The position numbers were made by a program, and so were the translations under genes. From Escherichia coli (GTDB lineage: Bacteria > Pseudomonadota > Gammaproteobacteria > Enterobacterales > Enterobacteriaceae), in assembly GCF_003334405.1 (NCBI RefSeq), contig NZ_QOWM01000027.1: a stretch of 35,140 bases of DNA, one strand, 5' to 3'. The notes under the pieces are model-generated. The model was not told the DNA's origin, made no database searches, and was given only the letters and a program-made list of their open reading frames with translations. How positions within the stretch are numbered: position 1 is the stretch's first letter; each line of letters starts with the position of its first letter. Positions 1-28,278 of the stretch are shown here, piece by piece.

Positions 1-200
1 CAGATGCCTGATGCGACGCTAACGCGTCTTATCAGGCCTACAAATTCCCGCGCCATCCGTAGGCCGGATAAGGCGTTCACGCCGCATCCGGCAGTCGTGC
101 GCAGATGCCTGATGCGACGCTAACGCGTCTTATCAGACCTACAAATTCTCACGCCATCCGTAGGCCGGATAAGGCGTTCACGCCGCATCCGGCAGTCGTG
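1..200. repeat. REP/BIME array: two tandem ~101-bp units, each with a pair of REP palindromes
   Basis: cagatgcctgatgcgacgc begins at 1 and again at 102; each unit contains gcctgatgcgacgc...cttatcaggcctac and gtaggccggataaggcgttcacgccgcatccggc, matching the E. coli REP consensus. Lies downstream of mhpE. Confidence 0.85.
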
Positions 201-25216: not shown

Positions 25217-25257
25217 GTTGTCCTCGTCATTGTTATCATTTGTAGGGTCGAGATTGT

Positions 25258-25536
25258 TGTCGGATGCGACGCTATGCGTCTTATCCGACCTACAGTTCAG
25301 TTCACCCCGTAGGCCTGATAAGTCGCGTCAGCGGCGCATCAGGCATCGGTTGTCGGATGCGACGCTATGCGTCTTATCCGACCTACAGTTCAGTGCACCC
25401 CGTAGGCCTGATAAGTCACGTCAGCGGCGCATCAGGCATCGGTTGTCGGATGCGACGCCATCCGTCTTATCCGACCTACAGTTCAGTGCACCTCGTAGGC
25501 CTGATAAGTCGCGTCAGCGACGCATCAGGCATCGGC
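25258..25536. repeat. REP/BIME array: three tandem 93-bp units in the prpC-prpB spacer
   Basis: tgtcggatgcgacgc at 25258, 25351, 25444; each unit carries two REP palindromes (ggatgcgacgctatgcgtcttatccgacctac / gtaggcctgataagtcgcgtcagcggcgcatcaggc); units differ at a few positions. Confidence 0.9.
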
Positions 25537-25562
25537 TGTCGAATACAATCAACGGGCGTTTT

Positions 25563-26453
25563 TTATTTCACCTGGCTACGGGCAAACAGGTTGTCGAGCT
25601 TCTCTTCGTACTGGTAGTAGTTGATGCTTTCGTACAGCTCGTTGCGGGTCTGCATGGTGTCGATGACGCTTTTCTGCGTGCCTTCCTGGCGCAGGACGTT
25701 GTAGACATGTTCAGCGGCGCGGTTCATGGCGCGGAACGCTGAAAGTGGGTACAGCGCCATTGCGACATGGGCGCTGCGTAATTCGTCGGTGGTAAACAGC
25801 GGCGTGGCACCAAATTCGGTGATGTTGGCGAGGATCGGCACCTGCACCGCATCGGCAAACTGGCGGTACATGGCGAGTTCGGTAATCGCCTCCGGGAACA
25901 ACATCTCGGCACCCGCTTCAACATAGGCCTGCGCACGCTCGATCGCCGCATCCAGCCCCTCTACCGCCAGAGCATCGGTGCGCGCCATGATCACAAAATC
26001 AGGATCGGTTTTCGCATCCACCGCCGCGCGGATCCGATCCACCATCTCTTCTTTCGAGACGATCGCTTTATTCGGACGATGACCGCAGCGTTTCGCACCA
26101 ACCTGATCTTCAATATGCAATCCTGCCGCACCGGCTTTAATCATCGATTTCACGGTGCGCGCCACGTTAAAGGCCGAAGAACCAAAACCGATATCCGCAT
26201 CCACCAGCAGCGGCAGCGAACAAACGTCGGTGATACGGCGAATGTCGGTCAGCACATCATCAAGGGTAGAAATACCGAGATCGGGCAGCCCCAGCGAACC
26301 TGCCGCCACGCCACCGCCAGAAAGATAAATTGCCTGATATCCGGCACGCTGCGCCAACAGCGCATGATTAGCGTTGATGGTGCCAACAATCTGCAATGGA
26401 TTTTCTTTAGTCAGTGCAGCGCGAAACGCTTTACCTGGAGAGTGTAGAGACAT
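25563..26453 (-). CDS. prpB: 2-methylisocitrate lyase
   Basis: 296-aa [63 protein letters not shown]..., PEP-mutase/isocitrate-lyase family. Confidence 0.95.
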
Positions 26454-26500
26454 AGCCCATCCTTTGTTATCAACTTGTTATTTGCGTTGATAAAGACAAA

Positions 26501-26516
26501 GCAAGGGGTGTGCCAC
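26501..26516 (-). promoter_or_regulatory. sigma54 (RpoN) -24/-12 promoter of prpBCDE
   Basis: Minus strand reads TGGCACaccccTTGCTT, matching TGGCAC-N5-TTGC; ends ~48 bp upstream of the prpB ATG; the neighbouring prpR encodes a sigma54 enhancer-binding protein. Confidence 0.8.
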
Positions 26517-26590
26517 AATTGCCTTAATAAAATTAAATGTTTAATTTCAATTTGTTAGAGATAAAGTCATGAACTAATCCGCAAATATGC

Positions 26591-26648
26591 GTTTCAGTTA
26601 ACGTTTCAGGCAATGTTTCACCGCGTTTCATTGCAACAATTATGAAAC
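26591..26648. promoter_or_regulatory. GTTTCA direct repeats plus an inverted repeat; candidate PrpR enhancer (UAS) in the prpR-prpB divergent region
   Basis: GTTTCA at 26591, 26603, 26615, 26625 (spacing 12, 12, 10 bp) followed by gtttcattgcaacaattatgaaac (GTTTCAT ... ATGAAAC); 75-150 bp upstream of the sigma54 promoter. Confidence 0.45.
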
Positions 26649-26691
26649 AAGACTAAACCCAATATTCGGTTTCTTAACTTTGCGGTGCGCT

Positions 26692-28278
26692 ATGGCACAT
26701 CCACCACGGCTTAATGACGACAAACCGGTTATCTGGACGGTATCTGTAACGCGCCTGTTCGAGCTGTTTCGCGATATCAGCCTCGAGTTTGATCACCTGG
26801 CGAACATTACCCCTATTCAGCTTGGCTTTGAAAAAGCAGTGACCTACATCCGCAAGAAACTGGCAAACGAACGCTGTGACGCCATCATCGCGGCTGGCTC
26901 TAACGGCGCGTACCTGAAAAGCCGCCTGTCAGTGCCAGTTATTTTGATTAAACCGAGCGGCTACGATGTGTTACAGGCACTGGCAAAAGCCGGAAAACTC
27001 ACCTCTTCTATCGGCGTTGTCACCTATCAGGAAACCATTCCAGCGCTGGTGGCGTTTCAAAAAACCTTTAATTTGCGCCTCGACCAACGTAGCTACATTA
27101 CCGAGGAAGACGCACGCGGGCAGATTAACGAGCTAAAAGCTAACGGCACCGAAGCGGTGGTCGGCGCAGGGCTGATTACCGATTTGGCAGAAGAAGCCGG
27201 AATGACCGGAATTTTTATCTATTCCGCCGCCACCGTGCGCCAGGCGTTCAGCGATGCGCTGGATATGACGCGCATGTCGTTACGCCATAACACTCACGAT
27301 GCCACCCGCAACGCCCTGCGTACTCGTTACGTGCTGGGCGATATGCTCGGTCAATCACCACAGATGGAACAAGTACGGCAGACTATTTTGCTGTATGCCC
27401 GCTCCAGTGCGGCGGTGTTGATTGAGGGGGAAACGGGGACGGGCAAAGAGCTGGCGGCCCAGGCGATTCATCGGGAATATTTTGCCCGCCACGATGCGCG
27501 ACAGGGCAAAAAGTCGCATCCGTTTGTTGCCGTCAACTGCGGGGCGATTGCCGAATCGCTGCTGGAAGCAGAACTGTTTGGCTATGAGGAAGGGGCGTTT
27601 ACCGGCTCGCGACGCGGAGGTCGCGCCGGGCTGTTCGAAATTGCCCACGGCGGTACGCTGTTTCTGGATGAGATTGGCGAAATGCCGCTACCTTTGCAGA
27701 CCCGGCTGCTGCGGGTGCTGGAAGAAAAAGAGGTCACCCGCGTCGGCGGGCATCAGCCTGTTCCGGTAGATGTACGGGTCATTAGCGCCACTCACTGCAA
27801 TCTGGAAGAAGATATGCAGCAAGGACGTTTTCGCCGTGATCTGTTTTATCGGCTGAGTATTTTGCGTCTGCAATTGCCACCACTGCGCGAGCGGGTGGCG
27901 GATATTCTTCCGCTGGCGGAAAGCTTTTTGAAAGTGTCTCTGGCGGCGCTCTCCGCCCCATTTTCTGCTGCATTACGCCAGGGGTTACAGGCAAGTGAAA
28001 CTGTGCTGCTGCACTACGACTGGCCAGGCAATATTCGTGAACTGCGCAATATGATGGAACGACTGGCGCTGTTTTTAAGTGTGGAACCGACGCCGGATTT
28101 AACGCCGCAGTTTATGCAACTGCTACTGCCGGAACTGGCGCGCGAGTCGGCGAAAACTCCCGCTCCACGCTTACTGACACCACAACAGGCACTGGAGAAA
28201 TTTAATGGCGATAAAACAGCAGCGGCGAATTATTTAGGCATCAGCCGGACGACGTTCTGGCGGCGGCTGAAAAGCTGA
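26692..28278 (+). CDS. prpR: Sigma54-dependent transcriptional activator of the prp operon
   Basis: 528-aa protein [33 protein letters not shown]... with AAA+ Walker [15 protein letters not shown] sigma54-contact motif and C-terminal HTH; ORF-track entry starts 4 codons upstream at a TTG. Confidence 0.92.

Follow-up and report, generated by a model that had tools for sequence, protein, structure and literature searches.

The cluster of GTTTCA/TGAAAC hexamers at 26591..26648, lying between prpB and prpR of Escherichia coli, can be read with considerable confidence, from its sequence and from those of its relatives, as the upstream activating sequence (enhancer) of PrpR. For Salmonella the PrpR enhancer consensus is CGTTTCATGAAACG, as given in Table 1 of PMC4987338 with credit to Palacios & Escalante-Semerena 2004, and GTTTCA is exactly one half of that palindrome. 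A preliminary description of this DNA had put the repeats forward as candidate PrpR enhancer sites, a proposal strengthened by this half-site identity, by the alignment of the orthologous palindrome with the E. coli repeats and by the way in which the motif travels with prpR. Clustering upstream of prpR, fixed orientation and a distance of 70-230 bp from the sigma54 promoter mark the repeats as PrpR, and not IHF, sites, and since the motif stays with the regulator gene while its surroundings change, it is best read as the regulator's own site. Coordinates are those of the window, the whole 35,140-bp stretch that was analysed, and the features referred to are the following.

25563..26453, minus strand: prpB, methylisocitrate lyase, first gene of prpBCDE (296-aa ORF; RefSeq annotation of identical sequence).
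26500..26515, minus strand: sigma54 promoter PprpB, TGGCAC-ACCCC-TTGCT = TGGCACACCCCTTGCT (exact consensus match).
26545..26557, plus strand: IHF-like site TTTCAATTTGTTA, about -56 to -68 (12/13 to WATCAANNNNTTR in a consensus scan).
26590..26620, plus strand: 12-bp tandem array (CGTTTCAGTTAA / CGTTTCAGGCAA / TGTTTCA...), half-sites 1-3, the promoter-proximal part of the putative enhancer (Tandem Repeats Finder).
26591..26596, plus strand: half-site 1, cGTTTCA, aligning to a degenerate GTGTCA of Salmonella and Citrobacter.
26603..26608, plus strand: half-site 2, cGTTTCA, aligning to the left half of the Salmonella/Citrobacter palindrome GTTTCATGAAAC.
26615..26620, plus strand: half-site 3, tGTTTCA, Escherichia-specific (ATTTCA in E. 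albertii).
26625..26648, plus strand: distal dyad GTTTCA-ttgcaacaatta-TGAAAC, half-sites 4 and 5, the best-conserved block of the spacer.
26692..28278, plus strand: prpR, enhancer-binding protein, ATG at 26692 (Pfam scan, RefSeq annotation).

Read directly from the sequence, 26454..26691 is the 238-bp spacer between the divergent prpB and prpR of E. coli. A 551-bp segment that includes it matches E. coli chromosomes at 100% identity and occurs in 5,220 of 5,426 complete genomes; in the matching chromosomes the neighbours are annotated as methylisocitrate lyase PrpB and propionate regulator PrpR, and the spacer coordinates, taken with these flanks, bear out the original assignment of a prpR-prpB divergent control region. 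In the E. coli collection the prp control region is plasmid-borne, and not chromosomal, in nine of approximately 5,220 matches. By Pfam scan PrpR comprises a PrpR_N sensor, a Sigma54_activat AAA+ domain, an AAA_lid, a linker of ~35 aa and an HTH_8 DNA-binding domain, and PDB entry 2PJU is identical to the N-terminal domain of the window's protein. On the other side of prpB, the 346-bp prpB-prpC spacer holds three tandem copies of a ~93-bp repeat, 93-100% identical, at 25256..25544; according to PMC7360682, strains of E. coli differ in how many copies they have, with a possible effect on post-transcriptional control.

The -24/-12 element TGGCACACCCCTTGCT has no mismatches to TGGCAC-N5-TTGCW, with GG at -25/-24 and GC at -13/-12 exactly 10 bp apart. 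The claim of a sigma54 promoter before prpB holds, its match being exact, with the correction that the element is at 26500..26515 and not, as first given, one nucleotide along at 26501..26516. It is the sole -24/-12 match in the window, even with up to one mismatch allowed, though such a count is not significant (at ≤1 mismatch about one match per window is expected) and so the weight rests on the element's placement and conservation: it is oriented towards prpB, just upstream of the gene, and it is conserved in 14 orthologous loci, being found in those of Escherichia, Citrobacter, Salmonella, Photorhabdus and Burkholderiales. The orthologous Salmonella promoter sequence, TGGCATAGCCTTTGCTTT, was bound by sigma54 in ChIP-chip (PMC3844500, Table 3), and an RpoN-holoenzyme gSELEX peak lies within the E. 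coli prpR/prpB spacer (PMC8743547). With the start site taken as -12 plus 12, transcription of prpB would begin near 26489, giving a leader of ~36 nt.

That leader has features of its own. The minus-strand transcript of 26467..26493 contains an 8-bp inverted repeat, TTATCAAC-N11-GTTGATAA, which as RNA folds into a hairpin (-6.8 kcal/mol, z = -2.0) right at the 5' terminus of the inferred transcript; Citrobacter conserves it and Salmonella does not. Also within this stretch, past the start site, is a perfect match to the IHF consensus, TATCAACTTGTTA, at 26468..26480. No Rfam family matched 26350..26800 at E<=1. There are also loci where prpR has a gene other than prpB upstream, those of Massilia (L006, L008) and Janthinobacterium (L007, L009), and there the 500 bp upstream of prpR yielded no -24/-12 element; in Massilia the GTTTCA/TGAAAC cluster directly before prpR is kept despite the different upstream gene.

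The E. coli array is made up of five exact half-sites and one with a single mismatch. Four direct copies, facing prpB, start at 26591, 26603, 26615 and 26625, precisely where the preliminary description had them, and the GTTTCAT-N10-ATGAAAC inverted repeat that it saw ending at 26648 is present at 26625..26648, with TGAAAC at 26643..26648; this inverted copy faces prpR, as does the inner one-mismatch half-site TGCAAC (26632..26637) within the distal dyad. Start-to-start spacings of half-sites 1-5 are 12, 12, 10 and 18 bp, so that a periodicity of 'roughly one helical turn' describes the first three steps and not the last. At 26590..26620 Tandem Repeats Finder detects a repeat of period 12 in 2.6 copies, its unit being CGTTTCAGGCAA. 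The two strands of the 35,140 bp together hold 25 GTTTCA/TGAAAC matches, five of them within 58 bp where 0.041 would be expected (Poisson P ~1e-9, or ~6e-7 when corrected for how many 58-bp windows there are). With the inferred PprpB start as reference, the array runs from -102 to -159.

Within the distal dyad 26631..26638 (ATTGCAAC) has an invariant inner TTGCAAC that resembles the Xanthomonas citri PrpR palindrome GTTGCAA-N2-TTGCAAC. The protein binding the latter has been characterised as a prp operon repressor (PMC12153269), and the likeness is probably coincidental.

Does the motif follow the regulator? A locus scan with full-length PrpR was a blunt instrument, only ~15 of 80 loci being true prpR, with generic sigma54 activators matched via the FLDEIGEM pattern and Salmonella missed; Salmonella, C. 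koseri and others were recovered by N-terminal-domain homologues and exact-protein look-ups. Several of the loci (L084 and L085, Salmonella; L086, L087, L088) have prpR broken by frameshift or truncation into two or more called ORFs, which could be long-read sequencing error or genuine pseudogenisation. Across 17 non-redundant prpR loci the hexamer occurs 54 times in 3.4 kb of prpR-upstream sequence against 63 times in the other 112.8 kb, a 28-fold enrichment (Poisson P ~7e-58). It persists outside the Enterobacteriaceae, where the spacers are unalignable, in Photorhabdus, in two enterobacteria-like assemblies and in Oxalobacteraceae/Burkholderiales that include Massilia, Rugamonas and Herbaspirillum. 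Conservation of the repeats across enterobacterial prp loci had been named as a check on the idea, and the clusters are indeed kept from Escherichia to Oxalobacteraceae. No exact hexamers were found in the prpR homologue loci of Janthinobacterium (L007) and Xanthomonas massiliensis (L015).

The organisation of the clusters is as telling as their presence. The order is constant: GTTTCA copies are found towards prpB and TGAAAC copies towards prpR. In every divergent prpR/prpB locus where the scan found a -24/-12 element, 70-230 bp separate that element from the cluster upstream of it. Of 57 sites, 52 have a pyrimidine, C or T, immediately 5' of the hexamer, which makes the unit YGTTTCA, and the spacing of same-orientation neighbours, 10-12 bp in 19 of 32 cases, backs the helical-turn remark. 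Over the range from E. coli to Oxalobacteraceae, PrpR's recognition helix, YLGISRTT(F/L)WRRLK, hardly varies.

Closer to home, eight Enterobacteriaceae spacer sequences could be aligned, and almost every column of the distal dyad is invariant across Escherichia, Citrobacter and Salmonella. Salmonella and E. coli have in common an orthologous regulator, the GTTTCA half-site, the divergent prpR/prpB layout, the distal dyad GTTTCA-N12-TGAAAC with near-identical inner sequence, and the order sigma54 promoter, AT-rich/IHF zone, enhancer. The difference is in the promoter-proximal site, which in Salmonella/Citrobacter is a perfect 12-14 bp palindrome that E. coli and E. albertii do not have. cGTTTCATGAAACg is present in Salmonella (L082, L084, L086), in Citrobacter (L003, L004) and in C. 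koseri (L083), with GTTTCAttgcaacatttaTGAAAC following at a distance of ten bases, and this palindrome and the GTTTCA-N12-TGAAAC that accompanies it align at the positions of the E. coli repeats. Against CGTTTCATGAAACG, E. coli matches the (C/T)GTTTCA half-site exactly five times, the full palindrome being present in the aligned Salmonella/Citrobacter sequences; E. coli is without the full 14-bp palindrome, its best 12-mers agreeing with GTTTCATGAAAC at 9 of 12 positions. Where Salmonella/Citrobacter have the right half TGAAAC, E. coli/E. albertii have ggcaat/gacact, and E. coli has an extra direct GTTTCA 12 bp to either side of half-site 2, the downstream one being ATTTCA in E. albertii. The layouts are thus > > > > < in E. 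coli and E. albertii versus (>) >< > < in Salmonella/Citrobacter, and the enhancer begins nearer the promoter in E. coli, at -102, versus about -125 to -139 in the Salmonella type. Derivation of repeat 3 by a 12-bp inversion (ggcaatGTTTCA from Salmonella TGAAACgaatcc) was considered and rejected, as the two agree at only 8 of 12 positions and agreement is lower in other genera.

Within E. coli the 91-bp array block is at least 99% identical in 4,288 of 5,221 records, and in a sample of divergent strains the substitutions are in spacer bases only, with no hexamer hit. Thirteen of the 5,426 complete genomes, mostly of chicken isolates, have one 12-bp unit duplicated to give five direct GTTTCA; an example is E. 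coli TB354 (L091), where at 139..162 the extra CGTTTCAGTTAA is a duplicate of window 26590..26601.

Such copy-number variation is what slippage yields in a 12-bp tandem repeat, and it is one ground for proposing that only the distal dyad (26625..26648) functions in E. coli, repeats 1-3 being the remnant of a decayed palindrome, expanded by slippage and contributing little activation. The proposal draws also on the distal dyad being the only block invariant across all the Enterobacteriaceae, and on repeat 3, which has no counterpart in Salmonella or Citrobacter and is degenerate in E. albertii. However, half-site 2 is itself invariant across the genera of the Enterobacteriaceae alignment (columns C158-A164), and in the sampled divergent strains all four direct hexamers are intact while nearby spacer bases vary. 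Direct arrays, moreover, are met elsewhere: the E. coli arrangement GTTTCAgttaacGTTTCA-N6-GTTTCA is found again in the distant lineage L087, and Oxalobacteraceae have 3-4 direct copies spaced 10-12 bp, so that such arrays are recurrent and not an E. coli accident. Both forms turn up in scattered lineages, the palindrome in Photorhabdus and the direct array in L087. In Salmonella the promoter-proximal site is reportedly the one of higher affinity, which also tells against the distal dyad acting by itself. We consider the decayed-remnant proposal unlikely, and retain the whole cluster as the probable PrpR enhancer.

A second alternative, raised in the preliminary description, is that the repeats are IHF or CRP sites. 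Expression of prpBCDE requires IHF, according to a statement in PMC10101121 and to the title of Palacios & Escalante-Semerena 2000 as cited in PMC4987338. The GTTTCA repeats are unlike WATCAANNNNTTR, and the IHF-like site is separate from them, in an AT-rich, length-variable, poorly conserved stretch between promoter and array; its CA core (26548-26549) is invariant in the eight Enterobacteriaceae sequences within an otherwise variable block. A candidate IHF site at 26545..26557 would fit the published requirement. The same scan of Salmonella gave no IHF site within one mismatch of WATCAANNNNTTR.

Both prpR and prpBCDE are CRP-dependent, with a single CRP site listed for the divergon (PMC9452892, PMC3105977), and PMC9452892, in what it relays of Lee et al. 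2005, has that site overlapping the PrpR operator and has PrpR regulation in E. coli abolished when the overlapping CRP/PrpR operator was mutated. In the spacer the best 16-mers reach 6/10 of the CRP core TGTGA-N6-TCACA, and those that coincide with the array, such as 26588..26603 and 26632..26647, are no better than others scattered over the spacer; as no match exceeds 6/10, no CRP site is assigned. By SELEX-chip CRP was not detected at the spacer, prpB and prpR being in the 'not identified' group (PMC3105977). Despite the reported overlap of CRP site and operator, it is highly improbable that the repeats, wholly or in part, are mainly CRP or IHF sites, for in Oxalobacteraceae/Burkholderiales, where the rest of the spacer is unalignable, the hexamers still cluster upstream of prpR, which ties them to PrpR itself.

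For activation, the scheme with the best support is the standard textbook one. PrpR, a sigma54 activator responsive to 2-methylcitrate, would bind YGTTTCA half-sites via its C-terminal HTH_8 domains, while RNA polymerase waits at TGGCAC-N5-TTGCT in a closed complex. By bending the AT-rich DNA around -60, IHF would bring bound PrpR to the sigma54-RNA polymerase, and ATP hydrolysis by a PrpR oligomer, its AAA+ ring contacting that polymerase, would open the promoter for transcription of prpBCDE. Dependence on PrpR, sigma54 and IHF and the 2-methylcitrate signal are published, and a general model with an enhancer-like element, looping and IHF is given in PMC13213109 and PMC10101121. With the array ending only 44 bp before the prpR ATG, overlap with the prpR promoter is probable, and the array probably couples the two divergent promoters in autoregulation; a sigma70 consensus scan gave no prpR promoter in 26400..26760.

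Is it a dyad or a half-site that PrpR recognises? The spacer of the innermost convergent half-site pair is 0, 3, 6, 11, 12 or 20-23 bp across loci, and this variability does not fit a rigid dimer. The linker before the PrpR HTH is Pro/Ala-rich and variable in length, and together with the widely varying central spacer this points to the half-site, and not a rigid dyad, as the recognition unit. When one-mismatch copies are included there are six half-sites each in E. coli, Salmonella and Citrobacter, and several beta-proteobacterial arrays have five or six within a span of 45-65 bp, an arrangement that would offer each HTH of a PrpR hexamer one of about six half-sites. A fuller version, to which we accord somewhat better than one chance in three and offer tentatively, would have YGTTTCA half-sites bound singly by flexibly tethered HTH_8 domains, in place of a dyad of fixed spacing, a convergent array of about six sites templating the hexamer, and the palindrome replaced in Escherichia by a 12-bp array whose length varies by slippage. 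If true, the copy number of the tandem array could tune propionate responsiveness between species and strains. If instead PrpR needs a symmetric dyad, direct repeats 1-3 of E. coli might be weak or non-functional.

How much of this is new? The PrpR enhancer and the sigma54 promoter of prpBCDE are already known, from work of 2000-2004 on Salmonella and of 2005 on E. coli, and the PrpR recognition sequence and the control of prpBCDE by PrpR, sigma54 and IHF were likewise published from 2000-2005 onwards. That the assignment of PrpR sites is already in the literature had escaped the preliminary description, as had the missing palindrome of E. coli. The difference in sites between Escherichia and Salmonella, and the view of the enhancer as an array of half-sites, are modest refinements. 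Of practical use is a map, base by base, of the E. coli enhancer, with its conserved hexamers, its Escherichia-specific ones and the tolerance of its spacers. PprpB/PrpR is a common propionate-inducible expression system (the pPro vectors) and biosensor, and that E. coli departs from the footprinted Salmonella site precisely at the promoter-proximal dyad matters for the engineering of PprpB sensors and for transfer of findings from Salmonella to E. coli.

Among known systems, the three NorR sites at norVW (PMC2831303) and the tandem NtrC sites at glnA resemble the array in being clustered ~100-160 bp upstream of a -24/-12 promoter. These enhancers work by looping with help from IHF and have a number of sites suited to a higher oligomer, as in the present reading of the PrpR array, and a PrpR hexamer may assemble on the array half-sites. 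Also comparable are the putative PrpR arrays of Oxalobacteraceae/Burkholderiales (L010, L011, L014, L089), which have the same hexamer, convergent order and HTH recognition helix. There 3-4 direct copies, 8-12 bp start-to-start, are followed by 2 inverted copies over a span of ~53-65 bp, with a central dyad spacer of 3 or 6 bp versus 12 in E. coli, and the array reaches right up to the start codon of prpR, only ~70-80 bp away from the sigma54 start. The sites of NorR and NtrC are dyads of fixed spacing, whereas the PrpR array consists of single 7-bp half-sites, direct and inverted, with the spacing between them free to vary.
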